UHGV virus genome: UHGV-0185745
Length of the DNA: 33,261 nt
Source of the DNA: a virus
Direction: 5' to 3' (one strand)
A program made the position numbers and the translations under genes. Shown piece by piece: positions 1-33,261 of this stretch. How positions within the stretch are numbered: position 1 is the first letter of the stretch; each line of letters opens with the position of its first letter. The notes under the pieces are model-generated. The model was not told the DNA's origin. It did not search any database and worked only from the letters and a program-made list of their open reading frames with translations.

Positions 1-219
1 TTACATCCACATAATTTGCTGCCCTGACGGCAACGGGTGCGGCCTCACGGCGTGGACTTCTCCCGGCTTCACGATGTATCGCTGTACCGACTCATAAGTG
101 ATGAACGTGGCGCTGCAATTCACGTTCTGGCACTGGTGATAACGCTCTTTTGTCGTGTCAGTGATATAGCGACTTGTACGCGCATGTGCGGCATGCTGGC
201 ATAAAGGACAATGAAACAT
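1..219 (-). CDS. ogr: Late transcription activator Ogr (C4 zinc-finger), 72 aa
   Basis: ORF MFHCPLCQHAAHARTSRYITDTTKERYHQCQNVNCSATF... with CxxC...CxxxxC zinc finger; ATG at 219..217; terminal position next to D as in P2. Track ORF 1..282 extends 21 codons upstream of this ATG. Confidence 0.9.
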   Translation of the reverse strand: MFHCPLCQHAAHARTSRYITDTTKERYHQCQNVNCSATFITYESVQRYIVKPGEVHAVRPHPLPSGQQIMWM

Positions 220-300
220 CGCGAGCACCTCTTCCGGTTTTGTTGATGGTGCCATTTTAGTTAATTTATCCTTATAAAACAAACAGATAAAATAAAAACA

Positions 301-1464
301 TCACTCATCATCTTCTGTTTCGTACTCCACATCAGAAAGCCTGACCTCAAGCTCCAAGGACGTCGTGAAGCCGCTATTATTCAGAAAATGTGTCACCTTA
401 GTGATTGTCCAGTCCTGCTCGTCTATGACGCGCTTAAAGCCTGATACTTTGACCGGCGTTTCCGTGTAAATATCTGCACGACCGGTAGCCAGGATGATGG
501 AGAACTCCGCAACGCCCCGTTGCAGTTTATCCCACTTCGCCTGAGCGGCGCGCATGGCCTGCGCTTTCGTGGCATATACCGTGGTCAGGGCAAAAACGTT
601 ATCAGCCTCACCGGCCATGTATTCACCTTCGCGCGCTTCCGGTACTTTAGGCGCTTTCTTCTGCCTGACCGGTTTCGCTTTCGGGTGCTCCAGTGCGCGC
701 AGGTGTTTTTCTTTCTTTTTGCGTTTCAGTTTTACCTTCTGCTTTTGCGGTTTCGGGTCTTTGGTGTGTAACCACTTTGCTGTTACGCCGGTATAGGCTC
801 CACGGTCAGCAATCGCAAAATGATGGCGGTCGCCGTCACTGCGGGTGATGGTAATCTGCGGGATTTTTTTACCGCTGGCCGTCACCCCCTGCCCCGCTTT
901 GAGAAACAACAGTTTTCCCATTTTTACCGACACCTCACCGCCGTTGCGTTCTGCAAGACGGGTCAGGAATTTCGCATCAGATTCCTGCGACTGGTCGATG
1001 TGCGGGATTTTAATTCCGGCCAGTGACGGAGCGACACTGGCTTCCAGCTTGTTACGGGAGGCTATCGCCTCAACAATCGCACCGAGCGTGGTGTCATGCC
1101 AGGAGCCTTCACGGCGGGAATTGAGCGCCCCGCGGAAATCTGCACTCCGGGCGCGGATGGTGACCACATCCGGCGCGCCCCGGTGTTCGACCTCATCAAC
1201 GGTGAATTTCCCTTTGCATACCAGGGCAAAACCTTTCCAGCCGATATACACCGTCAGGACAGCGCCACGAACCGGCAGCCCGACCTGCCCGTCGGCATCG
1301 TTCAGTTCAATATCAAGCTGGTCAGCCTCAAAGCCCCGGTTATCCGTCAGGGTCATGCTCATCAGACGGTCACTGATATTGCCGGTAATATCCCTGCTGT
1401 CGAGCATCAGCATGTAATCCGGCGTCAGCGTACTGCCTGCATCAAATGTCAGCGCATCCAGCAT
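301..1464 (-). CDS. D: Tail protein D (baseplate hub-like, late control gene D), 387 aa
   Basis: Length and position identical to P2 gpD; follows U; stop/start overlap with U (TGATG). Confidence 0.88.
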   Translation of the reverse strand: MLDALTFDAGSTLTPDYMLMLDSRDITGNISDRLMSMTLTDNRGFEADQLDIELNDADGQVGLPVRGAVLTVYIGWKGFALVCKGKFTVDEVEHRGAPDVVTIRARSADFRGALNSRREGSWHDTTLGAIVEAIASRNKLEASVAPSLAGIKIPHIDQSQESDAKFLTRLAERNGGEVSVKMGKLLFLKAGQGVTASGKKIPQITITRSDGDRHHFAIADRGAYTGVTAKWLHTKDPKPQKQKVKLKRKKKEKHLRALEHPKAKPVRQKKAPKVPEAREGEYMAGEADNVFALTTVYATKAQAMRAAQAKWDKLQRGVAEFSIILATGRADIYTETPVKVSGFKRVIDEQDWTITKVTHFLNNSGFTTSLELEVRLSDVEYETEDDE

Positions 1465-1943
1465 TATCCCGCCCCCGTCATACCCGTGAATCTGGTCGCC
1501 ATACTGCCAGCCTTACCGATGAGCGATTCCGCCTGTTTACCGATATCGCCATAAAGCGCGGCCAGTGATTCATCAACGCGGGTGAGCGACAGCGTAAAAT
1601 CAATTTTCCGGGGTGTGCCGTCTGCAAAGAAAATACTCCCTGTTTCACTCACCCTGCTGATGACATACATGCCGTAAATCATGCCGGTGCCATCCAGCAA
1701 CGGCCACGCCCGGCCTTCCTCTGCCATCAGCCTGAGCGTGGTCATCGTCAGCTTCCCGCCGGTCAGTTCGGGATAAAGCACACCGGCAAGCGTCATGTTT
1801 TCCTCACCCACACCGAGAAACTGATAGGCATCCCGTTTACCGATACGGGAATTTGACGGCCAGCGATAATCTGATTCACGCTGCATGGTCTGGTGTGGCA
1901 GCGTCTGGCGCATAAAAACAAACATACCTAACGCGAGCATCAT
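1464..1943 (-). CDS. U: Tail protein U, 159 aa
   Basis: Synteny T-U-D and P2-like length. Confidence 0.85.
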   Translation of the reverse strand: MMLALGMFVFMRQTLPHQTMQRESDYRWPSNSRIGKRDAYQFLGVGEENMTLAGVLYPELTGGKLTMTTLRLMAEEGRAWPLLDGTGMIYGMYVISRVSETGSIFFADGTPRKIDFTLSLTRVDESLAALYGDIGKQAESLIGKAGSMATRFTGMTGAG

Positions 1944-1957
1944 TTTTCGTCACCTCC

Positions 1958-4405
1958 TTAACCGTCATGCATCATGCTGGCACGGGCGCGCGCACGTTTA
2001 TCCCGCTCGTATTTTTCGAGCGCATCCTGTAACTGGCGGTCAAGCTGTGTCCCCGGCGCAGTACCACCCGTCAGGCTGATGTGATATTCGTTTTTACTCT
2101 GGTCTACATAAGAGCGGCCAGCCGGTGCCGTGACCGGCTGATAAGCCTGATAGCCTGCATAAGAGCTGGTCGCCGGAATATAACCACCGGTGCTATACGT
2201 GACGGCATTAGTCCTTGCGGCGGTCTGGTCGAGTGTGTCTGACTCTTTGTTGATAACACCGAGTTTTTCCAGTACCCAGTCAATACCACTGCGCAGTTTG
2301 TTGAACGCATTAAGCGGCAGCATCAACGCGTCAGCCAGTGCCTGCCCGAACATGACGCCCGTATCACGGCAACGGTTCAGGGTGTCCTGGGTGGCTTTGA
2401 CCGGGGCAATCAAGTTTTTAAACCACTGCCACGCGGCCTGTAACTTTTCACCCAGCCAGTCAAACAGCGGCTTAAGTGGCGTGAACAGTTCCCCCACCGG
2501 CGCAAATGCTGCTTTCAGCCCTTCAACCACACCGCCAAAGAATGCGCTGACAGGCTCCCAGTATTTACGGATAAGCAACGCCCCGGCGACAATGGCGGCC
2601 ACCACGGCCACAACCGGCCAGCTAATCGCCCCGATGGCCGTCATAACGGCACTGCCGACCGTCGTGAAGATTGCCCCCATTGCGCCTGCTGCCGCGATAA
2701 TGGCATTGATGCCGGTGATAACCGGCCAGGCTACGAGGCCAATGGCACCGATGATGCCAGTAAGCGCCAGTGCGCCACCGGCAATGAGACCAATGGTTGA
2801 CGCCAGTGATTTGTTTTTCTGTATCCAGCCGTCGAGTTTTAACACATACTTTGTGGCCGTCTGCGTGAGCTTACGCAGCGCGCCTTCCTGCTGGTCAAAC
2901 AGGTCAGTCCCCACCGCCTCATAAGCGGACTGAAACTCCTTAAAGTCACCGCCGAGGTTGTCCTGCATGATATTTACCAGCTCGGCGGTCTTCCCGTCTG
3001 AGGCTTTAAACGCAGCGGTCAGTTTGTCCAGCTTTCCGGTTGAGGCGGCAGTCATCAGCACAGCGGCGGCTGAGCTGGCCTCCTCCCCGAAAATGGTTTT
3101 CATGTATTCAGCCTGCTGGGCAGTACCGAGCCGGTTTTTCTCAAAACTGGCCTGCATTTCTTTCAGAATGGTAAATACTGGTCGGGTATTCCCCTTGCTG
3201 TCTGAGGTTTTCACGCCAAGCTCTTTGAGTGCATCCCATGCTTTTCCCGTCGGTGCCTGCAGGCGACTTAACACGGCACGGCTTCCCGTCCCCGCCATTG
3301 AGCCTGTGATTTTTGCATCATGCAGCGCCCCGACCATTGCGGCGGTTTCTTCAATGCTGACACCGGCATTTTTTGCCACAGGTGCGGCATAGGTCAGCGC
3401 ATCGCTCATGCCGTCAAAATCGGCGGCGGTTTTGTTCATCGTCATGGAGAGAACATCCCCGATATGAGCGACCTTATCGTTTGAAAGCTGAAAGGCAGAT
3501 TTCATCCCCATCAGCAGGGCGGCGTTTTCTTCCATCGTGCGACGGTTTGCCAGTGCCATATTCAGCGTGACCGGCGTTGCCGCCTGAATAGCCGCAGCAT
3601 CTCCACCCGCTTTCGCAATGATAATCTGTGCACCGGCTGCATCATCTGCCGAGGCGGCGGTATTGTCGCCGAGCTGGCGCGCCTGCTTGCGGAGTGCGGT
3701 CATTTCGGCAGAGTCTTTTGCCACTCCCAGCACGGCCTGCAATTCTGAGTTTTTCTGCGCAAACTCATAACCGGGCATCAGCAGCTTAACTCCGGCCAGC
3801 GTTCCCGCCGCCGCAATCCCCACACCGGCAGCGCCCACCGAGGCCATATTTCCGGCCAGTTCCTTTCCGGCCTGATCACGCTGTTTTACTGCGTTAAGTT
3901 TTGCCTGTTGCGCACTGACACGTGCCAGCGCATCACGCTGACGGTTAAGCTGTGTGGTGGTTTCGCTGATACGGTTTTTCAGCCCTCGTTCATCATGCGC
4001 CAGATTACGGGTATTAATACCCGCCTGACTCAGTTCCTGACGCTGGCGCTGTACCGACAATCTCAGGCTGTTATATTTCGCCTGTAACTCAGACGCATTT
4101 TTACGCGCGGCTTCCATTGCCTTTGCCTGTGCATTTGTCGGTCGTTCAGTATTTTTAAACTGGACAGCCAGAGCTGCGGCTTCCTGTCTGGCTTTTTTCA
4201 ACTCCTGACCAGTCACGGCGAGCTGTGCACTGGTCTTGCGAAATTCCTCAATACGGGATGCCTGACCGTTCAGCTCGCGCAGTGATTTTTGTGTTTCCCG
4301 GATATCCCCCGACAGCGACTTGCTCGCTGTGCGGATGGATTTAAACGGGCGGGATGCCTGGTCAACAGCCCTGAGCAATACCTGTAATTTTACATTGTTA
4401 CTCAT
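1958..4405 (-). CDS. T: Tail tape measure protein T, 815 aa
   Basis: 815-aa Ala/Gln-rich protein with coiled-coil N-terminus and hydrophobic glycine-rich segments; located after E/E' as in P2. Confidence 0.9.
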   Translation of the reverse strand: MSNNVKLQVLLRAVDQASRPFKSIRTASKSLSGDIRETQKSLRELNGQASRIEEFRKTSAQLAVTGQELKKARQEAAALAVQFKNTERPTNAQAKAMEAARKNASELQAKYNSLRLSVQRQRQELSQAGINTRNLAHDERGLKNRISETTTQLNRQRDALARVSAQQAKLNAVKQRDQAGKELAGNMASVGAAGVGIAAAGTLAGVKLLMPGYEFAQKNSELQAVLGVAKDSAEMTALRKQARQLGDNTAASADDAAGAQIIIAKAGGDAAAIQAATPVTLNMALANRRTMEENAALLMGMKSAFQLSNDKVAHIGDVLSMTMNKTAADFDGMSDALTYAAPVAKNAGVSIEETAAMVGALHDAKITGSMAGTGSRAVLSRLQAPTGKAWDALKELGVKTSDSKGNTRPVFTILKEMQASFEKNRLGTAQQAEYMKTIFGEEASSAAAVLMTAASTGKLDKLTAAFKASDGKTAELVNIMQDNLGGDFKEFQSAYEAVGTDLFDQQEGALRKLTQTATKYVLKLDGWIQKNKSLASTIGLIAGGALALTGIIGAIGLVAWPVITGINAIIAAAGAMGAIFTTVGSAVMTAIGAISWPVVAVVAAIVAGALLIRKYWEPVSAFFGGVVEGLKAAFAPVGELFTPLKPLFDWLGEKLQAAWQWFKNLIAPVKATQDTLNRCRDTGVMFGQALADALMLPLNAFNKLRSGIDWVLEKLGVINKESDTLDQTAARTNAVTYSTGGYIPATSSYAGYQAYQPVTAPAGRSYVDQSKNEYHISLTGGTAPGTQLDRQLQDALEKYERDKRARARASMMHDG

Positions 4406-4825
4406 TCGTGTTTCCGCTTCGCCGGAGCGCCTTTTCGCGCCATGTGATGAGTTCGGTCAGGCTCATGGGATACAGTTCTGATGGCGGCCAGTGAAATATC
4501 ACTGCCACATCCGCCATCAGGTCATCGACCGACAGATTTTTCGGAAACGTCACTGCACCGAGTTCGGCGACAAAAAACCGACCACCTTACCGGCCAGCGC
4601 CACAAGGTCAGGCAGTTCCAGCGCGGCGACTTCCTGCTCGGTCAGCATCGGTGCCGTCATGCGCGGCAGCACCTTAATCAGTGCATCGACTTCGGAGTTT
4701 GCAACCGCAGCCAGACTGACACCGCGCAGCGTCCCGGCATTGGGTTTCATCAGCGTGACCTGTTCGATAACCTGCTCACCACGTTTGACCGGATTTTCCA
4801 GGGTAATGACATTTTCTTTGTTCAT
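4398..4825 (-). CDS. E+E': E+E' frameshift fusion product, 142 aa predicted (-1 frameshift at T_TTT_TTG)
   Basis: Minus-strand GGT TTT TTG at 4579..4571; shifting -1 after TTG opens a 57-codon extension ending at TAA 4400..4398; 85+57=142 aa, the size of the P2 E+E' product; E' overlaps the T start (ATG 4405). Confidence 0.7.
4550..4825 (-). CDS. E: Tail assembly chaperone E, 91 aa (zero-frame product)
   Basis: 91-aa ORF immediately upstream of T; contains slippery heptamer near its 3' end. Confidence 0.85.
   Translation of the reverse strand: MNKENVITLENPVKRGEQVIEQVTLMKPNAGTLRGVSLAAVANSEVDALIKVLPRMTAPMLTEQEVAALELPDLVALAGKVVGFLSPNSVQ
4571..4577 (-). other. Programmed -1 ribosomal frameshift slippery site (T TTT TTG)
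   Basis: X_XXY_YYZ heptamer in E reading frame; analogous to lambda G/GT tail chaperone frameshift. Confidence 0.65.
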
Positions 4826-4881
4826 GGTTTTCTCACTTCTGAATCAGGGTTAACCGGTCAGCCTGGCTGACCGTATGAAAA

Positions 4882-5400
4882 TCACAGGCCGATATTTCGG
4901 CGGTGTTGCTCCAGCCGGTCGACGCCGTTCACCTTCTCAATCATGTTGATGGTGTCGATTTCGACCAGCTCCTTACCGTCCATCGTCAGCCGGAAATAAG
5001 TACAAATCACCGGGAGTTTCGATTCGGTATCCTCTCCCTGTTTACCCTCTCCGGTGTCGACTTCTTTCTGACGCCCACGCATGACCACTTCGACGGCCAC
5101 CGTTTCGCCGGTATCGTCGCGCTGGTAAGAACCAGCAAAACGAATCGGTACGGCATCAGCACTGGTTGCAGCGTAAAGCTCCCAGATAACCGAATCCGGG
5201 AATCCACCGAGCGACCACTCCATTGACAGCGCATCATCATCAAGGCCGAGGTCTACCGGTGCGCTGCCGTTCATTCCCGCACCGCGATAATTTTCGAGCT
5301 TACGGGTCAGTTTTGGCAGCGTGACGGAATTTGCAACGCCCTGATAGCTGTAGCCGTTCAGAAAGACATTCATGTATTTGAGTTTGCGCGGCATTGCCAT
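4882..5400 (-). CDS. FII: Tail tube protein FII, 172 aa
   Basis: Synteny FI-FII-E and P2-like length. Confidence 0.88.
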   Translation of the reverse strand: MAMPRKLKYMNVFLNGYSYQGVANSVTLPKLTRKLENYRGAGMNGSAPVDLGLDDDALSMEWSLGGFPDSVIWELYAATSADAVPIRFAGSYQRDDTGETVAVEVVMRGRQKEVDTGEGKQGEDTESKLPVICTYFRLTMDGKELVEIDTINMIEKVNGVDRLEQHRRNIGL

Positions 5401-5412
5401 CGGTCAGGCTCC

Positions 5413-6603
5413 TTAATTGCTGTTAACCGAGGTGACCAGATTTGCCAGGTATTTATCGGTGATACGCTGGCGCAGGGTCAGGTTTTCGAGAGGAGGCGCC
5501 GGGGTATAGTCGTAGTCGATATACAGTTTTCCGGCCTTGAGGGTTTCCGCATCGTTGGATTCTTCGCTGAACCAGCATGTGCCATCCACGATATAACCGT
5601 TGCTTTTCAGTTCGCGGAATTTGGCATTGATGCCGTCAACGATGTCGCGAATCAGCGTTGCGGTGATGGGCTTGTCCACCGCCCACATGTGCGCCTCAGC
5701 CATCGTGTCGGCCAGCACCTGCGCGGTGCGGGTGTAGTTTTCAAAGAGGAACAGCGGGTCATCAGAGCAGGTACGGTTACCCCAGAAGCGGAAACCGTCA
5801 CGGCGAATCAGCGTTGTGACACCTGACTCGTTCAGCAGGTCAGCATCGGTGCCGGACTCCTGCAAATCCCAGAATACGGACGCACTGATGCCGGTAACAC
5901 CGTTTACCCCGACGTTGGACAGCGTTTTATGCCAGCCCTGCTCCTGGTCGATTCTGGCACGCAGACCCAGCGCACGGGCGGTGGCATACGCGGTGGCGGT
6001 GGTACTGGTGACCGTATCCCATGCGAGGAAATCCGGCCAGATGACCATCAGCTCACGCTGGCTGAAATTCTGGCGGTAGGCTTTCACCTCGGAAATGGTT
6101 TTACAGCCCCATGCGCTGATATACCCGAAAGCGCGCAGCTTCTGGCAGACTGATGCCAGTGCAACAGCCACCTCTTTGGTGTCCAGTCCCGGCACACCGA
6201 GAATACGCGGTTTAACACCGGTTACCGACTCTGCCGCCAGCAGGGCTTTCAGTCCGGTATACTGACCGTTTTCGTCAGTGGTGCCGATGATATTGGAAAC
6301 GGTCTGCGCGAGTTTCGTTTCTTCGTCGTCGCCGGTGCCGTCTTCCACACGCACGACAACGGTGACCGGTTTTGACTGGTCAGCGATGGCCTGCAGCGAC
6401 GCCGCCAGCGTGCCTTTTTTACCGGCCTTTGCAATTGCGCTCTGCACATTGGTAATCAGCACAGGTTTATTGAGGGGGAAGGTTTCCGCATCCGCATCGC
6501 TGGCCGTGCAGACCATGCCGACAATGGCAGTGGATACAGTGGAAATGACGCGGGTGCCGTCGTTAATCTCCAGCACCTGCACGCCGTGATGATAGTCACT
6601 CAT
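5413..6603 (-). CDS. FI: Contractile tail sheath protein FI, 396 aa
   Basis: 396-aa ORF preceding FII; P2-like length and position. Confidence 0.9.
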   Translation of the reverse strand: MSDYHHGVQVLEINDGTRVISTVSTAIVGMVCTASDADAETFPLNKPVLITNVQSAIAKAGKKGTLAASLQAIADQSKPVTVVVRVEDGTGDDEETKLAQTVSNIIGTTDENGQYTGLKALLAAESVTGVKPRILGVPGLDTKEVAVALASVCQKLRAFGYISAWGCKTISEVKAYRQNFSQRELMVIWPDFLAWDTVTSTTATAYATARALGLRARIDQEQGWHKTLSNVGVNGVTGISASVFWDLQESGTDADLLNESGVTTLIRRDGFRFWGNRTCSDDPLFLFENYTRTAQVLADTMAEAHMWAVDKPITATLIRDIVDGINAKFRELKSNGYIVDGTCWFSEESNDAETLKAGKLYIDYDYTPAPPLENLTLRQRITDKYLANLVTSVNSN

Positions 6604-6726: not shown

Positions 6727-6945
6727 TGCCTTGATTTGTACTCTCTCAGTTTCCAACTGACAAATTACGTAACCAAAACTCTGTCAAATCTGACAGTCTG
6801 CTTTGAGCGAAAAACAGGTATTGAGATACATAATAAATCATCTCAATTTTCAACTTTTCTGCCACTTAACATCTTGAGTAGTAAATAGTACAAAACTATC
6901 TACTGCCGAAGGGCTCTAGGAAGTATGGTTTCTGCACAATAAGAC

Positions 6946-7089
6946 TTATATCGGCTCACGGGGAGCCAAAAGATATTCATTGCCTAGAATTTGCAGATGA
7001 GGTGGTAATCTGTACTGGGGCGGTACTGCAACAGCTATGTATATTTCCACTGCGGTAATCTGTACCAGCAGGTAGAAGCTGTTATACAT
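6946..7089 (-). CDS. Candidate small ORF, 47 aa, hydrophobic N-terminus (MYNSFYLLVQITAVEIYIAVAVPPQY...)
   Basis: ATG 7089..7087 preceded by AGGGGCGGUG; not in the ORF track (<60 aa); overlaps an inverted repeat that could sequester its RBS. A 12-bp direct repeat falls in two different frames inside it, which argues against coding. Confidence 0.25.
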   Translation of the reverse strand: MYNSFYLLVQITAVEIYIAVAVPPQYRLPPHLQILGNEYLLAPREPI

Positions 7090-7125
7090 CACCGCCCCTG
7101 TAGTGCTAATCCGGAGATAGCACTA
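7017..7125. repeat. Structured non-coding element: 8-bp inverted repeat GGGGCGGT(7017-7024)/ACCGCCCC(7091-7098), 12-bp direct repeat GGTAATCTGTAC (7004-7015, 7054-7065), and 8-bp stem hairpin TAGTGCTA/TAGCACTA (7101-7108/7118-7125)
   Basis: Read directly from the sequence; located 50-170 nt downstream of the TOPRIM-like gene stop. Confidence 0.5.
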
Positions 7126-7177
7126 CTCTCATCAAGGCTTGTTCTTCCATAAACCGCAATAGGTGTTAGTTTTAGCC

Positions 7178-8035
7178 TTAATGTAAAATTAACAATTGAT
7201 TCAGACGCTTATGTAATTTTGTGGTTCTAAATGTATGATGATCGTAACTCATACGCATATAACTATCTATCTCATCCAGACGCATGTTCTTATTTACAGA
7301 TATATCAGTTTCATACATCATTTTTAATATACATGTAAAGTCATGACCATTGCATATAGAAAAATGATCTGGCGACATTAATTCTAATTTACGCATTTCA
7401 TTATATAAATTTTTCGCATTAAAATCCTTATCAGTACGACTCCTGCTAAGCACATGATTTATATATTTGGTTTCATCAACTACAACATCTGTCCTGTTAA
7501 TACTTACAAAATTCCTGTAATTCATTCCTTTGAAATTAAGATTGCTATGTGTAAGATAATTGTACCATTTGAGAAGTCCGATTTTATAGCATGCACAAAG
7601 GATGTTCATCTTTACATCCTGACAGAATATATCGGCCAATTCCCCTTGAATTAATTTTCTATCTGTATGTGACATAATGAATTTATCAACCGCACCACCT
7701 TTTACTAACATCATTTCAAGGTCATGAGCATCAGTATAAAAAATCCCCTCGTGATTTATTCCGCTTAACTCATCAAAGTCCGCGTCACATACACCATACA
7801 CAGCATTATTACCTGCACGACGTAATTGACTAACAGCCAATATTACTTCACGTTTTCCATTTTCAGGTGATTCATAAATGATTCTATTATCAAGCCGATA
7901 TGCATTGAAAAATCGGATATCTGAAATGCCCTCAACCACAATCAATATACAACGTTGATACATTTCATTTCTGAATAAAAGCATCATACTACTCAACCAA
8001 TCATCTTCGCGAACAGCATTGCGTAATGACATCAT
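7178..8035 (-). CDS. TOPRIM-like (OLD-family/DUF4435-like) putative nuclease, 285 aa; AriB-like partner of upstream ATPase
   Basis: Conserved Glu in ILIVVEGISD (E35) and DxD in YGVCDADFDE (D84, D86) about 50 aa later, the TOPRIM pattern; ATG abuts the stop of the ATPase gene (TAAATG); AT-rich. Confidence 0.6.
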   Translation of the reverse strand: MMSLRNAVREDDWLSSMMLLFRNEMYQRCILIVVEGISDIRFFNAYRLDNRIIYESPENGKREVILAVSQLRRAGNNAVYGVCDADFDELSGINHEGIFYTDAHDLEMMLVKGGAVDKFIMSHTDRKLIQGELADIFCQDVKMNILCACYKIGLLKWYNYLTHSNLNFKGMNYRNFVSINRTDVVVDETKYINHVLSRSRTDKDFNAKNLYNEMRKLELMSPDHFSICNGHDFTCILKMMYETDISVNKNMRLDEIDSYMRMSYDHHTFRTTKLHKRLNQLLILH

Positions 8036-20210: not shown

Positions 20211-20213
20211 CGG

Positions 20214-21287: not shown

Positions 21288-21345
21288 AGTTTTTCCTGAA
21301 ATTAAGGGTTAATCGTGAAGGTTTTCCCGGACTGACTGACGCCGG

Positions 21346-25762: not shown

Positions 25763-27244
25763 ATGGAAATCAAAGAATTTGTCAGCCAGTACAAAAACCA
25801 CCCAGTTCTTTTTATAGGCACAGGTTTTAGTCTAAGATATCTGCAAAACTCATTCAGTTGGGATGGGTTATTGATGAAAATTGCCGTTGATTTAACTGGC
25901 AACCCTGAATTTTATTATGATCTTAAATCGGAAAGTATTGAAGGTGACGAATACAGATACGACATTCTTGCAACAAAATTAGAGAATATCTTCAATAAGA
26001 AACTCGCCGAAGACAGAAACGGAAAGTTTGAAAGCATCAATGATATTTTCTACGAGAACATGAGTCATGGAAAAAAACTTAGCCGATTCAAAATATACCT
26101 AACATCAATATTAAAAGACTCACCTCTCAAAGAAGATTTAAGAGATGAAATTAACAGCTTAATAAAAACAAGAAAGAATATTGGCTCAATTATTACTACC
26201 AATTACGATCAACTTATCGAAAATTTATTCGATTTCTCTCCGCTTATTGGCAACAATATATTGCTAAGCAATCCATATGGCTCGGTATATAAAATACACG
26301 GTTGTGTTAGTGACCCCAATAACATAATCATAACATCTGATGATTATAATAACTTTAATGACAAATATGAGTTAATACGTGCTCAACTATTATCTATATT
26401 CATTCACAACCCCATTATTTTTTTAGGATATAGCATCAGCGACAAGAATATTAAATACCTCCTGCAGACAATATTTTCATATGTAGATCTAAATACTGAA
26501 CTAGCAAAAAAAATAAAAGACAACTTTCTCCTTGTTGAATATGATGAGGGGAACATGTCTACAACTATTTCTGAACATGATATTAACATTGAAGGTTTAT
26601 CCATTATAAGAATTAACAAAATCAAAACAGACAATTACAAAGCCGTTTACGATGCCATATCTAATTTAATTCTCCCTGTTTCCGCAATGGATATAAGAAA
26701 AGTACAAAAAGTCTGGAATACAATAAAAAGTGGCGGTGAAATCAAGGTAAAAATCACGGAAAACCTCGATGAATTACGGAATGAAGAAATGGTAATCGCT
26801 GTAGGCTCAGAAAGAACTGTTACCTACGAATACCAGACAAAATCTGAAATGATTCAAAATTACTTTAAAATTGTCGATGAAGCTAACGCACAACTCATTG
26901 CACTTTTGAATAAACAAACTATCACAAATCATGAGCACTTTCCAATTTACGCATTTAGTTCTGTATGCCCTGAATTAGAAAACGTTCAGCTATACAAAGA
27001 CAGACAATTGGATAAGATAATAAATCAACTCACTAGAATTAAAGCGTGCAAATGTGATGCAACAACAATAGATGAGATATTAGAAACAACAAAAGAATAT
27101 AAAGTAGCCAATACAATCATGTATTGTGTACTTAATGACACAATTTCCTTAGCACAACTCAGAAAATATCTTATCTCTATATCACACAAAATAGATACTC
27201 ATTACCGTAAATTATTGTGCCTGTATGATTTTCTATCATACTAA
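25763..27244 (+). CDS. SIR2-like domain protein (putative NAD+-hydrolysing defence effector), 493 aa; C-terminal ~250 aa of unknown function
   Basis: N-terminal Rossmann-type VLFIGTGFS (aa 15-23), IITTNYDQLIE (N147, D149), KIHGC (H179), FLGYSISD (aa 220-227): the pattern I associate with SIR2_2-type domains of ThsA/DSR proteins; strongly AT-rich; sits at the P2 tin/old slot. Confidence 0.5.
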   Translation: MEIKEFVSQYKNHPVLFIGTGFSLRYLQNSFSWDGLLMKIAVDLTGNPEFYYDLKSESIEGDEYRYDILATKLENIFNKKLAEDRNGKFESINDIFYENMSHGKKLSRFKIYLTSILKDSPLKEDLRDEINSLIKTRKNIGSIITTNYDQLIENLFDFSPLIGNNILLSNPYGSVYKIHGCVSDPNNIIITSDDYNNFNDKYELIRAQLLSIFIHNPIIFLGYSISDKNIKYLLQTIFSYVDLNTELAKKIKDNFLLVEYDEGNMSTTISEHDINIEGLSIIRINKIKTDNYKAVYDAISNLILPVSAMDIRKVQKVWNTIKSGGEIKVKITENLDELRNEEMVIAVGSERTVTYEYQTKSEMIQNYFKIVDEANAQLIALLNKQTITNHEHFPIYAFSSVCPELENVQLYKDRQLDKIINQLTRIKACKCDATTIDEILETTKEYKVANTIMYCVLNDTISLAQLRKYLISISHKIDTHYRKLLCLYDFLSY

Positions 27245-27259
27245 GCATAAAAATATATA

Positions 27260-27290
27260 AACCGTCAGAATGAACTGACGGTTTATATTT
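27260..27290. terminator. Bidirectional intrinsic terminator between convergent SIR2-like gene and A
   Basis: AACCGTCAG-AATGAA-CTGACGGTT hairpin flanked by an A-tract upstream and TATATTT downstream. Confidence 0.55.
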
Positions 27291-27356
27291 ATTACATAGC
27301 CCCATATGTACAGAACGCTATTCCCCTTATTCACAACTAATAAAAACCGAAGATTC

Positions 27357-29654
27357 TCAGTAATGTTCACTACTGAACGCCATAAAGTTGGAGAATCCCG
27401 GCCACTCATCAGCGACCGGATACGTGAATTTTTTCCCGTCATAATTTACGGTCGCGCCACACGCCAGCGCCTCAAGCTCCCATCGCTGCGGCCTGATACC
27501 GTTCTGAGCAAGGTCAACGCGGATACGGGTGATTTGCAATCGTTCAGACCGGGTCAGTCTGGCCGATGGTGCAATTTCATGCGGTTTTAACGGGCTTCCG
27601 TTTCTTTGCTGACGATTTGGCGTTCTCAGCCCGTGTTTTAATGCGCCCCTGAGCGCCTTCACGACCTCCGGCTCATTCCATTCGATAACACCGTCATCAA
27701 CCAGATTAAGCACTGCTGCGGCGTGCTCAGAGGGTGTGGGAGCCGGTAACGAAGTATCACCACCGGTGACCTTTCCACAGTTATTGACAGGACTCCGAGG
27801 CGCGGCGATGCCGCTTTTTAAAGTCAAAGGCTCCACGACCGGAACTTTCGGAACAATGCGCCAGTCCGTCGTTCTGGTGATATGAATATGACGCGCGCCG
27901 AGATGCGGCGCGTAAATGCCGACCACTCTCTCGACTTCTTCCTCGTACTCGTTAACTTCATCCGACGGGCTACGGGCGACTCTGACAGTCTGGCAATTGC
28001 GCGGAACATTTGCCCCACCCTGCGCACTGATATACAACGCAAAATCGCCACTGTCTGCGGCGGCGCGTGCAGCCTCGACGCGCTCGTCAAACTCATCAGC
28101 AATGCTGACGCCGCGAGGCAATTTACGTAGTTCACGGTAAGCCCCCATTGTCGGCAGGCCAACCGTTTTAAATTGCGGGATGCGCCACGTTGACGCCCAT
28201 GCGGTAACAGCCGCCGCTGTGTCTTTCAGCGGCCTGCCGGTATCGTTATCGAGCTGACCATCCAGTGCATAGCCGTCGATGTTTTTTGAAATGTATTTCG
28301 CGATATACCCCGCAGCACCGCCCCGGTTAAGGTGTTTTGCCTGAAAACGGTTTCGCGCGGCTCCTCTTTCGCCGCCATCCTCTTTGAGCGCATAGCGACG
28401 CATGATTTCGATAATCTGGTTACGCTGGCGCGGATTACAAAAAAGCATCATATGCCAGTGCGGCGTTCCGTCGTGGTGTGGCTCGACGACACGCAAACCG
28501 TAGACCTGTAAATCATTATCCTTGAATGCCGTGCGCATCAGGCTCCAGATATGGCAGAGATAACGCTGCGCATCCTTTGGATTAAATGCCTCATCGTTCC
28601 AGCCGTGATTTAGCTGGACGGTTTTACTTTCGCCTTTTCCGACCTGACGTGTCGGGTGATACTTTGACGGCGCGGTCAGCGTGATAAACATCCCCACATC
28701 ACCCTCTGCTGCGGCGTAACGCTCAATACCGGCAATGGTGTTCATCAGCTCCATCCGGCGAATTTCAGGATTAGAAATACTGCCCATCACCTTACTGATA
28801 AGGTCGATGCGCTCGCCGGTTTCCCTGTTTTCAAGGTCACACGATTTAAGAAATTCCAGATTTGCCTGGCGGCGCGCACGCACATCACGAATGGCGTGTT
28901 TACTGGCATAAGGAGAACGGTCTTTATTGACCTCCCCGACAGCTATCAGTAACGCTTCATGCCAGCGCATACGCTGGCCTTTAAGCTGATGAGTCCACCA
29001 CTCATCGTTAAACAGACGGGCAATGGCAGAATATGCCTGCCTCGTGGTCATCTGTCCTTTACGGTATTTTTTCCAGTAAAGCGGGGAAATATTGAAAGCA
29101 CGTGCAGCGCCAGCAACATGACCATACAGATGCGCCTGCGCCTCATCCGTAAACAGCGATTCTTTTTCGCCATGCGCATCCACCCAGGCATCGCAGAGTT
29201 CCTCATACATCATGAAAAGCTGCGATGAGATACGGGCGGCAAACTTTTTCAGCTCCTTGTCATTCATCCCCGGCAGACGCGCATAGTGGTCACGCTCAGC
29301 CAGAAACAGCATCGACGCTTCGGTGTTCATTTCATGGCGCTGATTCACACGCTCAATGCGCGGCCATAAACGACGCTGAAAAGTGGATGTGAGAAAATAA
29401 AACCCGTGCACCGGGCTTTTATTGCGCCGGATGTAGTCATAGCGTGAAGTAAACAGCGAGCGCAAAAAGTAAGGCAGGCGGTTAATCGTGGATAAAACAC
29501 CTTGCACCTGACGCATCTCGTCACGTGTAAGAGGTCTTTCGCGCCAGACAGCCTCGCGTGGCGCGTTCCATGCATAAGCACCGGTAAACGCCTTACCGGT
29601 GCCTGCGGCAAATGCTGACGGAGGGACAAAACGCCCGGAGGCTTTAACGGCCAT
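27357..29654 (-). CDS. A: Replication initiation protein A (rolling-circle HUH nickase), ~765 aa
   Basis: HUH-like motif PHWHMML and tyrosine pair AGYIAKYISK; ATG at 29654 (MAVKASG...); the track ORF starts at an upstream TTG (29696). Confidence 0.9.
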   Translation of the reverse strand: MAVKASGRFVPPSAFAAGTGKAFTGAYAWNAPREAVWRERPLTRDEMRQVQGVLSTINRLPYFLRSLFTSRYDYIRRNKSPVHGFYFLTSTFQRRLWPRIERVNQRHEMNTEASMLFLAERDHYARLPGMNDKELKKFAARISSQLFMMYEELCDAWVDAHGEKESLFTDEAQAHLYGHVAGAARAFNISPLYWKKYRKGQMTTRQAYSAIARLFNDEWWTHQLKGQRMRWHEALLIAVGEVNKDRSPYASKHAIRDVRARRQANLEFLKSCDLENRETGERIDLISKVMGSISNPEIRRMELMNTIAGIERYAAAEGDVGMFITLTAPSKYHPTRQVGKGESKTVQLNHGWNDEAFNPKDAQRYLCHIWSLMRTAFKDNDLQVYGLRVVEPHHDGTPHWHMMLFCNPRQRNQIIEIMRRYALKEDGGERGAARNRFQAKHLNRGGAAGYIAKYISKNIDGYALDGQLDNDTGRPLKDTAAAVTAWASTWRIPQFKTVGLPTMGAYRELRKLPRGVSIADEFDERVEAARAAADSGDFALYISAQGGANVPRNCQTVRVARSPSDEVNEYEEEVERVVGIYAPHLGARHIHITRTTDWRIVPKVPVVEPLTLKSGIAAPRSPVNNCGKVTGGDTSLPAPTPSEHAAAVLNLVDDGVIEWNEPEVVKALRGALKHGLRTPNRQQRNGSPLKPHEIAPSARLTRSERLQITRIRVDLAQNGIRPQRWELEALACGATVNYDGKKFTYPVADEWPGFSNFMAFSSEHY

Positions 29655-29919
29655 ATGAGCCAAAAGCCTCTGAACAACGCTTGCTGAGTTGCTCAACCTG
29701 CGCGTTTAAATCAGCAAAAGATTTTGCGCTTCCGGTCAGAATATCGTGATGCATCAGGCCGGAAACGAGCTGGCTTAATTTCGGGTAATAACCAACCACC
29801 GCCAGCCATTCCTGACCGGCGTTTTTACCGCTTTCCGCTCTCTTTTTCTCGTGGAGAATAAACTGAAAGCTGTCACTGGTAACGACATAACGTTCGCCAA
29901 TTTCAATACGAATACTCAT
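29644..29919 (-). CDS. Hypothetical early protein, 91 aa
   Basis: ORF in the early operon between B and A; ATG start; overlaps A start. Confidence 0.5.
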   Translation of the reverse strand: MSIRIEIGERYVVTSDSFQFILHEKKRAESGKNAGQEWLAVVGYYPKLSQLVSGLMHHDILTGSAKSFADLNAQVEQLSKRCSEAFGSYGR

Positions 29920-30140
29920 GCCATTCTCCGGTAATGTTTGTTTTTTGCTTCAAAGACTGACTGACAGGAAACACAACGCGTGGCTGACGGATAAGCCGCA
30001 CGACGGGCAGCAGGTATTGGTGCGTCACACTCTTCGCAAACCAGCGCAGAAGCACCGCAATGTTTTACCCTTGCCGCGTTAATCTGGCGCTCCAGTAATT
30101 CAGCCTGTTGTTCCTGAATAAAATCCACGTTGTCCGGCAT
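29916..30140 (-). CDS. TraR/DksA-family C4 zinc-finger protein, 74 aa
   Basis: CEECDAPIP...CVSCQ four-Cys motif; typical small early-operon gene of P2-like phages. Confidence 0.6.
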   Translation of the reverse strand: MPDNVDFIQEQQAELLERQINAARVKHCGASALVCEECDAPIPAARRAAYPSATRCVSCQSVFEAKNKHYRRMA

Positions 30141-30142
30141 TA

Positions 30143-30442
30143 TCAGCTCCTTTTATCGTTAAGTTTCCTGGATACATCAGCGCAATAGCTGGCAAGTTCT
30201 GTCGTTAATTTTGTCAGTTCATCCACGGAGGAAATTTGCTTGTGGAATACAGCGCGTTTAACAAGTAAATTGACCACATCAGACAGGAGGTTTAATTCAT
30301 TCTGATAAATCGCGATTACAGATTCAGTTATGTCGCGTTTTTCTTTATCAAGACAAAGTTGAATAAGAGACAAATCGCCATTTTCCATAACGGCGATTTT
30401 TAAGGCGTTATTCAGTAATACAACTGAATAAGAACAGGACAT
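30143..30442 (-). CDS. Hypothetical early protein (99 aa from ATG 30442; alternative ATG 30388 gives 81 aa)
   Basis: ORF with coupled stop/start to the upstream gene; start uncertain. Confidence 0.45.
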   Translation of the reverse strand: MSCSYSVVLLNNALKIAVMENGDLSLIQLCLDKEKRDITESVIAIYQNELNLLSDVVNLLVKRAVFHKQISSVDELTKLTTELASYCADVSRKLNDKRS

Positions 30443-30666
30443 CAAAGCACCTCCCCGCGAGACAATCCGATATTGTGAAATTTTTCCGACTCCTGACTGA
30501 GCAGTTCGACTATCTCCACGCGGGATAACTCCGCCTTTGTGATATGGCGAATCATGGCGTCAAGATGAGAAGAAAAGCGCGTCGCAGCGTCGGCCTGTGC
30601 TTCGGTTCTGGCCTGTTGCAGCAGTAATGCGTATTTACCGCACTGATTTTCAGAAACTGTATGCAT
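30442..30666 (-). CDS. Hypothetical early protein, 74 aa
   Basis: ORF directly downstream of B in the same operon. Confidence 0.5.
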
Positions 30667-30729
30667 GACTTTCTCCAGGCAAAAAGAAGCCCCGCACGAT
30701 TAAGTGCGTTAAAAACTCTGGTTAATTAT

Positions 30730-31230
30730 TTAATGCAGATATTGCTCTGGTTTTACCGACGTCAGAATTGTCGGTGCATACTCAAACAGGCTGAATAATT
30801 CACGTAATGCACGGAATAAAGCATCACGCCAGTAACATGACTCTTCATTAATTCGCCAGTATGGCTGGTTGAATTCTTTTTCAGTCAATCCGGCATGCAT
30901 AAATAAAGTACGACGCTGACTGACTGTTAAAAAACTAATATATGCATACTCACTTGCGCCAACCTGACGGCGTTTTGAGAATGCCCCACGCAATTCATCA
31001 ATTGCGCAAACCAGTCGTTCACGTTCGACGTCGTTCATTTCTTCAAAACGCATCGTTGCGTGACGCTGTTTTAACTGCGCATGGAAGCAAACCGTTAGCC
31101 GTTCACGTTCCATCATCTGATTATAATAATCGCATGTCTCCTGCCAGCGAGGGACGGCCAGATGCTTACCAATTATCCGGCGCATAGTTGCTGGCTGTTT
31201 TTCAACGAGATTGAGCGTCATCACTGTCAT
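30730..31230 (-). CDS. B: Replication protein B (helicase-loader-like), 166 aa
   Basis: ATG 31230 with GGAGG 8 nt upstream (MTVMTLNLVEKQ...), 166 aa as in P2 B. Confidence 0.85.
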   Translation of the reverse strand: MTVMTLNLVEKQPATMRRIIGKHLAVPRWQETCDYYNQMMERERLTVCFHAQLKQRHATMRFEEMNDVERERLVCAIDELRGAFSKRRQVGASEYAYISFLTVSQRRTLFMHAGLTEKEFNQPYWRINEESCYWRDALFRALRELFSLFEYAPTILTSVKPEQYLH

Positions 31231-31517
31231 TTCCATACCCTCCGGCTTTTCAGAAAGGTCAGAGCCTTTTTTAACGGACTCTGTTTTTTGGTGCGGATAA
31301 TGATTCCCTTGCGTCCCTTCCCGTGGGTGATGGTAAAGTCAATCGCCCTGGGGCTTTCGTTACGCAATAACTGAGCAATACAACGAGGCTCGTTCATCCT
31401 TTCCACCTTAAGCCGCACGGCCATGTCTTGATTTGCTGTAACTAATGCGATTTTTCCAGTCATGCCATTCTGTCGGAGCTTCATCAACCAGTTGGGCTGC
31501 GTACTTGTCCCACTCAC
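31227..31517 (-). CDS. Hypothetical small early protein (start uncertain; 78 aa if ATG 31463)
   Basis: ORF between cox-like gene and B; stop overlaps the B start (ATGA). Confidence 0.4.
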   Translation of the reverse strand: MSGTSTQPNWLMKLRQNGMTGKIALVTANQDMAVRLKVERMNEPRCIAQLLRNESPRAIDFTITHGKGRKGIIIRTKKQSPLKKALTFLKSRRVWK

Positions 31518-31779
31518 GGCGATTAATCCATAATTCAGCTTTCCCTCTTGGTTTTAATGGGTCTGTCATGTAGAAGGCTGGCAGCTTTCCTGCTTTAGCC
31601 ATTTCAGCCACCGCGCGTGGTGTCTTACCGATGTAAAGAGCAAAACCTTCTTTCGACAGCAAATCAGATGGGCGCTCTGAAATCTGAATGCTTTTACGTT
31701 TGGCTTCATTTTCGAAACTTGCCTCATCGCTAGTTGGACAAGAAATTTCTACATTTGTCGTCACTTTGCTATCCTCCAT
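31408..31779 (-). CDS. cox: Cox/Apl-like HTH regulator (excisionase / early-promoter switch protein), up to 123 aa
   Basis: First gene of the early operon, divergent from the repressor; HTH-like FALYIGKTPRAVAEMAKAGKLP; no SD upstream of ATG 31779, so the start is uncertain. Confidence 0.55.
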   Translation of the reverse strand: MEDSKVTTNVEISCPTSDEASFENEAKRKSIQISERPSDLLSKEGFALYIGKTPRAVAEMAKAGKLPAFYMTDPLKPRGKAELWINRREWDKYAAQLVDEAPTEWHDWKNRISYSKSRHGRAA

Positions 31780-31872
31780 AAGATTTGCGATTCACCAACT
31801 GGAGCCATCTAGAGCCTTTTTGAGTGAATCACAAATTACCAAGTAGCAATATAATTGGAGATTAGCAAAATT
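31780..31872. promoter_or_regulatory. Immunity switch region between cox-like gene and C (early/repressor promoters and operators)
   Basis: Short gap between divergent regulators; TATAAT at 31850-31855; similar half-sites GATTCACCAA / GAATCACAAA. Confidence 0.45.
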
Positions 31873-32172
31873 ATGTCAAGTGAACAAAGTGAGAAACTAA
31901 AGCTCATCCGTGAATCCGAACGCCTTAAAACTAAGGAACTTGCTGAATTAATTGGAATTAATTACTACACATATCATGGATATGAATCAGGAAAATCAAA
32001 AATGCCTATGGAAGCAGGTATGAAGCTGTTTAAGCATCCACGCTTTCGCAAGTATCGTGACTGGTTCATGTTTGATGAAACAGATCCAGCAGCTGGACAA
32101 ATAGCCCCGGCTCTCGCACACATTGGGCAAGACTCAACAACCTTGCACCACTCAGACCAGAAGACTGGCTGA
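31873..32172 (+). CDS. C: Immunity repressor C, 99 aa
   Basis: ATG 31873 preceded by GGAG; HTH LAELIGINYYTYHGYESG; gene immediately upstream of int; the track ORF starts at an upstream TTG. Confidence 0.75.
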   Translation: MSSEQSEKLKLIRESERLKTKELAELIGINYYTYHGYESGKSKMPMEAGMKLFKHPRFRKYRDWFMFDETDPAAGQIAPALAHIGQDSTTLHHSDQKTG

Positions 32173-32265
32173 CGATTTATTCAGCATATGTGTGTAGTAA
32201 ATGTACGAAAGAAAATTGCATTAATTTTCAAGTAGTAGAAGTAAACAGCGTCATCGGAGGGCTTT

Positions 32266-33261
32266 ATGTCTATTAAAAAGCTCGATGATGGTCGTTATGA
32301 AGTGGACGTCAGACCGCAGGGTGCAGATGGAAAACGTATCAGGCGGAAATTTAAAACTAAAGGTGAAGCTCAGGCATTCGAACGTCATGTACTGGTTAAC
32401 TACCACAACAAAGAGTGGTTGGAGAAACCAGCCGACCGCCGAACTCTTACAGAGTTGTTAGGTAGATGGTGGATATATCACGGAAAATCACATGAGCGTG
32501 GAGATATTGAACGGGGGCGTTTAACGACAATAATCGCCAAATTTGCAGAGATGGGAGTGTCCAGAGCTGACCAGCTAACAAAGAAAACGATAACTGATTA
32601 TCGCGTTGTAATGATGAACGATGGTCTAAAACCAGCCAGCGTAAATCGACATCTGGCAATAATGAGCGGGATGTTCACCAAGTTAATTGACGCCGGTGAA
32701 TACCACTCCCACAACCCGTTCCGTGAGATTAAACGGTTACGTGAAGCTGTTACGGAAATGGCTTTTTTGTCCAGTGAAGAGATTACGCGGCTGTTATCCA
32801 TGCTTGATGGTGATGAATTAAATGCAACTCTGGTCTGCCTTTCTACTGGTGGACGCTGGAGTGAAGTGTCTAATTTAAAAGCTGAACACATCATTAACCA
32901 GATGGTTACGTTTATGAAAACTAAAAACGGAAAACGCAGGACAATTCCCGTTTCGCAGGACCTGATTAAACGGATCAAGACCAAAAATTCAGGCAGGCTT
33001 TTTAATGCCAGTTACTACAAAGTGCGTAACGCTCTCAGGGAAGTAAAACCCGATTTACCTGACGGACAAGCAGTACATGTTTTGAGGCATACATTTGCCA
33101 CACATTTTATAATGAATGGAGGTAACATAATCACATTGCAGCGCATCCTGGGTCATTCTAATATTCAGCAAACTATGACCTACGCACACTTTGCACCGGA
33201 TTTCTTACAAGATGCTGTGACTCTTAACCCGGTGTCAGGAATGTCCATAATGCGTCCATAA
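32266..33261 (+). CDS. int: Tyrosine integrase, 331 aa
   Basis: C-terminal catalytic signature HVLRHTFATHFIMNGGNIITLQRILGHSNIQQTMTYAHF (R...HxxR...Y); GGAGGG RBS; terminal position. Confidence 0.9.
   Translation: MSIKKLDDGRYEVDVRPQGADGKRIRRKFKTKGEAQAFERHVLVNYHNKEWLEKPADRRTLTELLGRWWIYHGKSHERGDIERGRLTTIIAKFAEMGVSRADQLTKKTITDYRVVMMNDGLKPASVNRHLAIMSGMFTKLIDAGEYHSHNPFREIKRLREAVTEMAFLSSEEITRLLSMLDGDELNATLVCLSTGGRWSEVSNLKAEHIINQMVTFMKTKNGKRRTIPVSQDLIKRIKTKNSGRLFNASYYKVRNALREVKPDLPDGQAVHVLRHTFATHFIMNGGNIITLQRILGHSNIQQTMTYAHFAPDFLQDAVTLNPVSGMSIMRP

Follow-up and report, generated by a model that had tools for sequence, protein, structure and literature searches.

Gene content and genomic context of the prophage

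The DNA analysed here is the virus genome UHGV-0185745, a stretch of 33,261 nucleotides (nt) that we call the window. It is an intact P2-family (Peduovirus) prophage of Escherichia coli, and both of its non-essential slots are occupied by foreign AT-rich DNA. Island 1 (positions 6814-10230) is found between genes FI and G, in the slot of the P2 fun(Z) gene, and carries two adjacent genes, ariA and ariB, that we assign to the anti-phage system PARIS. Island 2 (25398-27390) is found between cos/Q and gene A, in the slot of P2 old, tin and orf91, and carries a single gene encoding a SIR2 protein. The guanine-cytosine (GC) content is 0.345 for island 1 and 0.330 for island 2, against 0.536 for the rest of the window. 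The features are listed in Table 1.

The window is oriented in reverse to the P2 map. Its comparison with P2 (NC_001895) by blastn gives collinear blocks of 92-97% nucleotide identity (1-6813, 10231-10334, 12902-15933, 15998-25368 together with cos 25350-25397, and 27391-31411). Using all 42 annotated P2 proteins as tblastn queries, we found 37 of them in the window: Q, P, O, N, M, L, X, Y, K, lysA, lysB, lysC, R, S, V, W, J, I, FI, FII, E, T, U, D, ogr, orf78, B, orf80, orf82, orf83 and A are matched over their full length at 92-100% amino-acid identity, and orf81 is matched over its full length at 88%. All of the essential P2 genes fall into the range of 92-100%, the specificity part of H/G excepted. 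The 19-nt P2 cohesive-end sequence, GGCGAGGCGGGGAAAGCAC, is matched exactly as its reverse complement, at the positions (25350-25368) where the alignments of P2 cosL and cosR meet.

A megablast search with the first 25 kb of the window matched 238 phage records, the best of which are isolated, viable Peduoviruses (P24A7b, PhiR44_1, P24E6b, D8 and 12W) that cover 81-82% of these 25 kb at 96-97% nucleotide identity. Among bacterial chromosomes, E. coli NZ_CP182365.1 (positions 3076625-3109885) differs from the window by a single mismatch, at position 14070. The intact open reading frames (ORFs) and the identity of 96-97% to isolated phages suggest that the prophage would yield infectious particles.

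Gene order, cos and essential genes at 92-100% amino-acid identity are common to the window, P2 and the Peduoviruses P24A7b, P24E6b, D8, 11W, 12W and PhiR44_1. What differs from P2 is the non-essential content: P2 has fun(Z) in slot 1, old/tin/orf91 in slot 2, and orf30, whereas the window has PARIS, SIR2 or nothing at these places. We found no tblastn match in the window at E<=1e-3 for fun(Z), tin and old, and likewise none for orf91 and orf30. At the place of orf30, between S and V, the window has 64 bp without a gene (15934-15997), which makes a third non-essential presence/absence difference from P2.

A preliminary description of the window had presented it as a complete P2-type prophage, without Z/fun and tin/old and with AT-rich cargo at both positions. 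The collinear blocks, the essential genes and the GC values bear this out; the absence of orf91 and orf30 had gone unmentioned. Its further claim that every structural, lysis, replication and lysogeny gene of the P2 map is present holds for the essential genes, but H/G and int/C/cox are heterologous. The P2-like lengths that it gave for the backbone proteins are found for most of them, which are full length, but not for H (872 a.a., against 669 a.a. in P2), G (192 against 175 a.a.) and Cox (123 against 91 a.a.). The alignment to P2 had been named in advance as the comparison that could overturn the description, if the islands proved to belong to the conserved backbone; neither island is part of the backbone, and the description stands.

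Table 1. Features of the 33,261-nt window, in order of position (a.a., amino acids)
Feature	Position	Strand	Remarks
P2 late tail block	1..6603	-	ogr 1-219, D 301-1464, U 1464-1943, T 1958-4405, E' 4398-4553, E 4550-4825, FII 4882-5400, FI 5413-6603; tblastn 95-100% a.a. identity, full length; RefSeq annotation of a near-identical genome agrees
Inverted-repeat arm A	6787..6811		25 nt, 84% complementary to arm B
LysR-family 3' relic	6892..7163	-	in-frame stops; downstream of ariB
ariB	7178..8035	-	DUF4435/TOPRIM nuclease (predicted), 285 a.a., WP_001531545
ariA	8036..9280	-	ABC ATPase (predicted), 414 a.a., WP_001531543
Best sigma-70-like promoter match ahead of ariA	9337..9366	-	TTGAAA-18-TG-TATATT, 10/12, extended -10; pattern match only
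Right-end relics of a divergent P2-family phage	9600..10103	-	ogr-like DNA 9600-9793, D' C-terminus 9794-9916, X' N-terminus 10008-10103
Inverted-repeat arm B	10234..10258		Z/fun slot
Tail-fibre assembly G and tail fibre H	10311-10889, 10889-13507	-	specificity part not P2-like
Baseplate/lysis/head block	13518..22200	-	I, J, W, V, S, R, lysC, lysB, lysA, K, Y, X, L, M, N, O; tblastn 92-100% a.a. identity
Terminase P and portal Q	22374-24146, 24146-25180	+	each 99% a.a. identity to P2
cos	25350..25368		exact 19-nt P2 cohesive end
Best sigma-70-like promoter match ahead of the SIR2 gene	25642..25669	+	TTGACA-16-TATTCT, 10/12; pattern match only
SIR2_2 protein	25763..27244	+	493 a.a., WP_021514374; N-terminal SIR2 NADase-type domain and family-specific C-terminal domain (~a.a. 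303-493)
Hairpin between the convergent SIR2 and A genes	27250..27293		19-nt inverted repeat, 89% complementary, 6-nt loop; terminator-like site (consensus match only)
Early/replication block	27357..31397	-	A 27357-29654, orf83, orf82, orf81, orf80, B 30730-31230, orf78 31230-31397; 88-100% a.a. identity
Heterologous lysogeny module	31408..33261		cox 31408-31779 (-), C 31873-32172 (+), int 32266-33261 (+)

PARIS genes in island 1

The two genes of island 1 are co-oriented, and the ariA stop abuts the ariB start (a TAA-ATG junction). The published detection rule for PARIS (Rousset 2022) calls for an ATPase with at least 32 bits to AAA_15 or at least 27 bits to AAA_21, adjacent to a protein with at least 27 bits to DUF4435. 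AriA scores 73 bits for Pfam AAA_15 and 62.4 bits for AAA_21, and AriB scores 89 bits for Pfam DUF4435 (cut-off 27), so the pair satisfies the rule with all three thresholds exceeded. Both proteins also match their PADLOC profiles (1.9e-25 for AriA and 2.6e-21 for AriB), and the best PDB sequence match of AriA is the AriA chain of the PARIS complex (8UX9_B, 4.7e-11). The ATPase motifs of AriA are intact: Walker A (GPNGYGKT) at 31-38, the signature LSSGE at 319, and Walker B (ILIDEPE) at 343. In the AriA of E. coli B185, K39 and E393 are essential.

AriB has no model in NCBIfam. Its residues E35, D39, D84, D86, D102, D105 and E107 are invariant among 21 homologues. The TOPRIM acidic residues of the B185 AriB are E26, D30, D88, E90 and E122; the spacing of E35-x3-D39 and D84-x-D86 in the window protein matches that of E26/D30 and D88/E90, a correspondence made by motif spacing and not by residue-level superposition. 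An AlphaFold (AF2) model of AriB, made from 21 homologues, has a pLDDT (predicted local distance difference test) of 88. Searched with Foldseek, this model matches the AriB chains 8V46_D and 8UX9_A at E=3e-7 (probability 1.00, template-modelling (TM) score 0.53-0.57, 11-12% identity in the structural alignment), and the next match is at E=0.29. By these profile and fold matches, island 1 is a PARIS system.

The PARIS system of E. coli B185 (8UX9, 8V46) resembles that of the window in having an ABC ATPase gene beside a gene for a DUF4435/TOPRIM protein on a mobile viral element. It differs in the length of AriA (464 a.a. in B185 against 414 a.a. in the window, which is 50 a.a. shorter) and in its location: the B185 genes are in a P4-satellite hotspot, and those of the window are in the P2 fun(Z) slot. 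In B185, a hexamer of AriA sequesters AriB, the ATP-dependent recognition of a phage protein frees AriB, and the AriB dimer cleaves tRNA-Lys (Burman 2024, PMC11464382). The AriA6:AriB3 complex, the release of AriB by a trigger, the cleavage of tRNA and the protection from phages are known from B185 only.

Besides the promoter match upstream of ariA (Table 1), there is a terminator-like hairpin downstream of the island 1 genes at 6727-6707 (a consensus match only). As phage T5 escapes PARIS by means of a tRNA, we searched the window for tRNA genes and for known RNA genes, and found none. An RNA gene downstream of ariB was considered, as the minus strand at 6900-7177 folds with z=-5.5, and was rejected: this stretch is a degraded LysR-family fragment, and a search of it against Rfam gave no match even at E<=1.

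A SIR2 gene in island 2

The protein encoded by island 2 scores 79.6 bits for the SIR2_2 domain. NCBIfam has no model for it; it matches the PADLOC family PDC-S25 over its full length (E=6.4e-157, residues 2-493 aligned to positions 13-514 of the 517 of the profile). The catalytic N147 (in the motif TTNYD) and H179 (in KIHG) do not vary among 29 homologues with identities down to 54%. The structural neighbors are all defence NADases, i.e. enzymes that hydrolyse nicotinamide adenine dinucleotide (NAD+): KomC, Avs5, ThsA and DSR2. Table S5A of Rousset 2022 (PMC9122126) names an identical protein (WP_021514374) under 'SIR2_2' among the cargo of the P2 gpA-Q hotspot. Structurally, nothing distinguishes the window protein from PDC-S25 or from that 'SIR2_2' entry; the family is a computational candidate, and PDC-S25 is still called a 'phage defense candidate' in a preprint of July 2026. 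Island 2 is likely a defence gene on this evidence, and its status remains that of a candidate.

DSR2, ThsA, KomC (of Kongming) and Avs5 are nearest to the window protein by profile and by fold, and they share with it a SIR2_2-type domain with the Asn and His pair and a layout of effector plus sensor. None of them is the same system. DSR2 is a protein of ~1,000 a.a. with C-terminal helical repeats; we rejected it since the window protein has 493 a.a. and is similar only in the SIR2 domain (profile stretch 138-235), with a global TM score of 0.3. Avs5 has a STAND NTPase, which the window protein lacks. Thoeris was rejected because ThsA profiles and PDB chains align only at ~116-301 (the SIR2 part) with no SLOG match, and also because island 2 has a single gene without an adjacent TIR gene (ThsB); a TIR gene is near one homologue only and is not conserved. 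Two SIR2 proteins from earlier screens were likewise set aside: pFR88 of Rousset 2022 is a different protein, and the SIR2 of Vassallo 2022 is PD-T7-2, a two-gene system of SIR2 and a HerA-like protein (PMC9519451).

To the C-terminal domain alone, 95 proteins were found among 1.84 billion representative proteins. The full-length matches are all of ~500 a.a. and have the domain at the same position; in this search the domain is confined to the PDC-S25 family, with no other architecture seen.

Homologues of the SIR2 gene are found in six contexts with unrelated neighbors and no conserved partner gene. In Klebsiella and E. coli O21 prophages the homologue is between a gene for a single-stranded-DNA-binding protein and the gene for DNA polymerase A; in an island of Firmicutes it is beside a large reverse transcriptase; and in Nitrosospira it is among transposases. 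In the O21 prophage the homologue (83% identical) is followed by DNA polymerase A and then by a gene encoding a CAP12-PCTIR_TIR protein (9691-10449, local coordinates). This TIR gene is probably a separate cargo, because it is missing from the Klebsiella version of the same prophage.

The SIR2 gene and gene A are convergent, and the hairpin between them (Table 1) is likely a bidirectional terminator, judging from its inverted repeat.

Boundaries of island 1 and a probable exchangeable cassette

The homology to P2 ends at 6813 and resumes at 10231, i.e. at the inner edges of two inverted-repeat arms (Table 1). The motif AATCYGRYAGNNNGCTNTGNGC occurs twice in the window, once in each arm (0 occurrences are expected by chance). 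It is also contained in the features annotated as 'left' and 'right inverted repeat' in the Z-region of P2-EC67 (AJ512685), and arm A corresponds to the 'right inverted repeat' of that entry. In the Z/fun ('TO') region of the P2-like coliphages P2-EC58 and P2-EC67 (AJ512683 and AJ512685) the same inverted-repeat motif bounds a variable segment, and the backbone homology breaks there as it does in the window; the difference is in the cargo, which in the window consists of PARIS and gene relics.

The same ariAB pair is found in a non-P2 prophage remnant of Morganella morganii, with 84% nucleotide identity over 2.9 kb. The flanks of this remnant are unrelated: on one side are a Hin-type invertase and tail-fibre genes, and on the other is umuDC. 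The remnant carries the motif pair (3799-3820 and 7225-7246 in local coordinates, 22 nt each), and its homology to the window stops at the outer edges of the arms (10264 and 6784 of the window). Since the backbone homology ends at the inner edges and the Morganella homology at the outer edges, the segment from arm to arm looks like a discrete exchangeable cassette, one that also resides in a non-P2 prophage. As far as our search of the literature reached, a repeat-bounded cassette of the fun slot that is shared with a non-P2 prophage is not established elsewhere.

Not all copies of this PARIS subtype have such boundaries. Klebsiella P2-like prophages carry the same subtype (AriB 76% identical) in slot 2 of P2, flanked by gpA and the portal gene; these copies have no inverted-repeat arms, and the homology is confined to the coding region.

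Outside of ariAB, island 1 consists of non-coding debris. The LysR relic shares 60-71% amino-acid identity (tblastn), with stops, with a LysR protein of plasmid NZ_CP010207.1. The relics at the other end match P2 positions 23816-24111 and 6486-6590 by blastn, and D (44% identity) and X (55% identity, with a stop) by blastx; the X' relic is common to the Morganella cassette. Some 170 E. coli chromosomes have a copy, 74% identical, of a ~125-bp stretch of the island (6841-6965); this copy is in a region that lacks annotation and is close to insertion sequence (IS) elements (e.g. NZ_CP029574.1 at 2032947).

Distribution of the two islands among strains and phages

Among 5,426 complete E. coli genomes, island 1 is found in 13 and island 2 in five, and the conserved flanks of the slots are found in 970 (island 1) and 2,152 (island 2). 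Matches of 100% to the two islands are found in five complete E. coli genomes. In a set of 50,697 phage genomes neither island is present, the coverage of each being no more than 12% in any record.

Between strains, the contents of the two slots vary independently of each other. In strain 751, of sequence type 131 (ST131), a prophage at the same pflA site carries the same PARIS cassette together with a gene for a HEPN protein in slot 2, and ISEc12 is inserted in its gene D. Isolate OZ039653 likewise has a prophage at this pflA site, with the SIR2 gene occupying slot 2 and genes for a DUF5677 protein and a truncated tyrosine recombinase occupying slot 1; the PARIS cassette of this isolate is in a second prophage elsewhere. 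The gpA-Q (old/tin) slot is a documented defence hotspot (Rousset 2022, PMC9122126), and both the gpA-Q slot and the fun slot have been reported as defence hotspots (Vassallo 2022, PMC9519451).

Modules that depart from P2

Apart from the two islands, two modules of the prophage are not those of P2. The alignment of tail fibre H to its P2 counterpart is limited to a.a. 1-207 (84% identity), and G shares 39% identity with P2 G in its C-terminal part (tblastn). The C-terminal two-thirds of H together with G (10311-12901) have only partial matches, to fibres of other Peduovirus and Yersinia phages. This replacement implies, as far as the sequence can tell, a receptor specificity different from that of P2.

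The second module is int/C/cox, with 53%, 50% and 35% amino-acid identity, respectively, to the P2 proteins (tblastn). It shares 99.8% nucleotide identity with the Peduoviruses P24E6b, D8, 11W and 12W, and by its sequence it is of an immunity and integration type other than that of P2.

Integration at pflA

The tblastn match of ogr runs from 219 to 4 and its stop codon takes up bases 3-1; the int ORF, stop included, ends at the last base of the window (33261). The window thus begins and ends where the preliminary description had placed its limits, at the ogr stop and at the int stop. It had further supposed that the att cores lie immediately outside, and had proposed to extend the flanks in search of the core and the integration site. 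The extension, read in NZ_CP182365.1, does reveal them, at some distance: one copy of a 13-bp direct repeat, GTCAGTTATTGGT, lies 114-126 bp to the left of position 1, and the other 91-103 bp to the right of position 33261. The prophage of this genome lies between pflB and pflA, within the 5' end of pflA (P2 integrates at sites of its own). In local coordinates of the extracted locus, the attL core is at 3500-3512, the attR core at 36977-36989 and the new pflA start at 36918.

The ogr-int interval of P24E6b, which represents attP, has the same sequence as the int-side junction as far as the end of the core, and as the ogr-side junction from the core onward. As the identity switches at the 13-bp core, the core is the crossover site. 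It spans codons 2-5 of pflA (in the start MSVIG), and the phage side of attP supplies an ATG and 19 codons in frame with pflA, so the lysogen encodes a PflA of 265 a.a. starting with MSNLTNCNTTENTATAGAAK-SVIGRIH. The new pflA ATG is only 31 nt downstream of the int stop, and because of this pflA may be transcribed from the phage C-int operon. A functional consequence of the replacement of the pflA 5' end is not established elsewhere, as far as our literature search reached.

Discussion

Taken as a whole, the locus is best explained as an intact P2-family prophage at pflA with lysogenic-conversion genes in its two slots; these genes most likely defend the lysogen against other phages. We hold this explanation to be highly probable. 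A tyrosine integrase would integrate the phage at the 13-bp core in the first codons of pflA. By homology to the B185 system, a scaffold of AriA would sequester AriB until binding of a protein of a foreign phage releases it; AriB, as a TOPRIM nuclease, would then cut a host tRNA, so that translation stops and the infection is aborted. For the SIR2 protein the most likely mechanism, drawn by analogy, is that the C-terminal domain senses a cue of infection and switches on the hydrolysis of NAD+, and that the loss of NAD+ starves the infected cell, as with the SIR2 effectors of DSR2 and ThsA. The analysis shows which genes are present, where the islands end, the att sites, the assignments of domains and folds, the conservation of the catalytic residues, the stand-alone context of the SIR2 family and the independent assortment of the two cargoes; we infer the expression of these genes in the lysogen, their triggers, their tRNA and NAD+ targets and the defence phenotype.

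The preliminary description had taken the two positions for recognised hotspots of anti-phage systems in P2-like prophages, which agrees with the published surveys (PMC9122126, PMC9519451), and had regarded both islands as defence cargo. For island 1 this can be said of a recognised system, PARIS; for island 2 it is only likely, the gene being a member of the candidate family PDC-S25.

A number of observations weigh against the explanation given above, and they are discussed here along with the alternatives. The phenotype of defence is, for either island, deduced from the genes, and a promoter scan finds sigma-70-like sites no commoner in the window than in shuffled sequence. In island 2, the AlphaFold model of the SIR2 protein has a pLDDT of 74, with low confidence near the catalytic His and at residues 306-356, and the C-terminal part (a.a. 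303-493) has no significant Pfam, PDB or fold match, so that the sensing step is put forward purely by analogy.

It is possible, if rather unlikely, that island 2 is not a defence gene at all, and that its product is, for example, a toxin of the addiction type by which the prophage is stabilised, a protein that regulates protein ADP-ribosylation or the NAD metabolism of the host, or a counter-defence enzyme. In the searchable literature we found no experimental test of PDC-S25, and nothing relevant on a test of a stand-alone SIR2. Another single SIR2, pFR88 from the P4 hotspot, is listed among the 'additional tested systems' (Table S2B) of Rousset 2022 and not among the verified ones (Table S2A), and about a quarter of the cargo of the P2 hotspot is non-defence (e.g. 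partition systems and toxins) according to the same study (PMC9122126). The location of the Klebsiella and O21 homologue inside a replication module, from the single-stranded-DNA-binding protein to DNA polymerase A, could suit a role that benefits the phage. The nearest relatives of the protein by sequence and structure, however, are all defence NADases; the gene stands alone, with no antitoxin-like partner conserved across its contexts; its sequence is AT-rich, its occurrence is sporadic, and its slot is a documented hotspot of defence; and a homologue is also found in non-phage mobile islands, next to a defence gene of the reverse-transcriptase type. These points favor the defence reading of island 2.

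For island 1, the assignment to PARIS competes with another member of the OLD-like combinations of ABC ATPase and TOPRIM protein (AbiL-like, or Septu-like by its ATPase), perhaps with DNA instead of tRNA as its target. AriA scores about equally against the Septu PtuA and the AriA profiles of PADLOC, and AbiLi matches too, so it is the partner gene that decides the assignment; this partner encodes a DUF4435 protein and not the HNH protein PtuB, in agreement with the published PARIS rule. As to AriB, BLASTP found no similarity to the tested AriB of O42 and phmmer found no match in the PDB, and the membership of AriB in PARIS therefore rests on profiles and fold. Yet the only significant matches of the AriB model are to solved AriB, over its full length, and the best PDB match of the ATPase is AriA. 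The shorter AriA of the window is a further difference from B185, to be seen against the diversity of PARIS, which comprises 11 divergent clades with poorly conserved trigger-binding pores. We consider this alternative to the PARIS assignment to be quite improbable.

That the prophage is cryptic or grounded, with its cargo genes as decaying passengers, is hardly to be expected: the relics of lysR, D, ogr and X in island 1 and the ISEc12 insertion in the sister ST131 prophage speak for it, as does the fact that P2-type prophages are not known to be SOS-inducible. Against it, the essential P2 ORFs all have their full length and 92-100% identity, cos and the att sites are undamaged, no interruption is seen in ariA, ariB or the SIR2 gene, whose catalytic motifs are intact, and the relics are confined to non-coding parts of the cassette, some of them in common with the Morganella copy.

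Two more specific proposals have, in our judgement, about an even chance of being right. One is that the PDC-S25 SIR2 protein would be a genuine single-gene system of abortive infection, in which the C-terminal domain is a new infection sensor that gates the SIR2 NADase. The other, which is separate from the first, is that the fun(Z) slot may be refilled by the exchange of a cassette with inverted repeats of 22-25 nt.

The phenomenon itself is already known, PARIS is already characterised, and the locus is already present in public catalogues. According to a published rule, P2-like prophages have two fixed slots in which anti-phage cargo can be exchanged; the locus is a clean natural example of this rule and therefore adds little that is new. 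Its interest lies in particular parts. PDC-S25 is a widely distributed single-gene SIR2 family, and here the gene is short, easy to clone and located beside a well-understood phage backbone. For the fun(Z) slot, boundaries at base-pair resolution and a repeat motif are now given, and the Morganella cassette makes the mechanism of exchange testable. Finally, the prophage gives a new 5' end to pflA, a core gene of anaerobic metabolism, and this could affect the physiology of its host.

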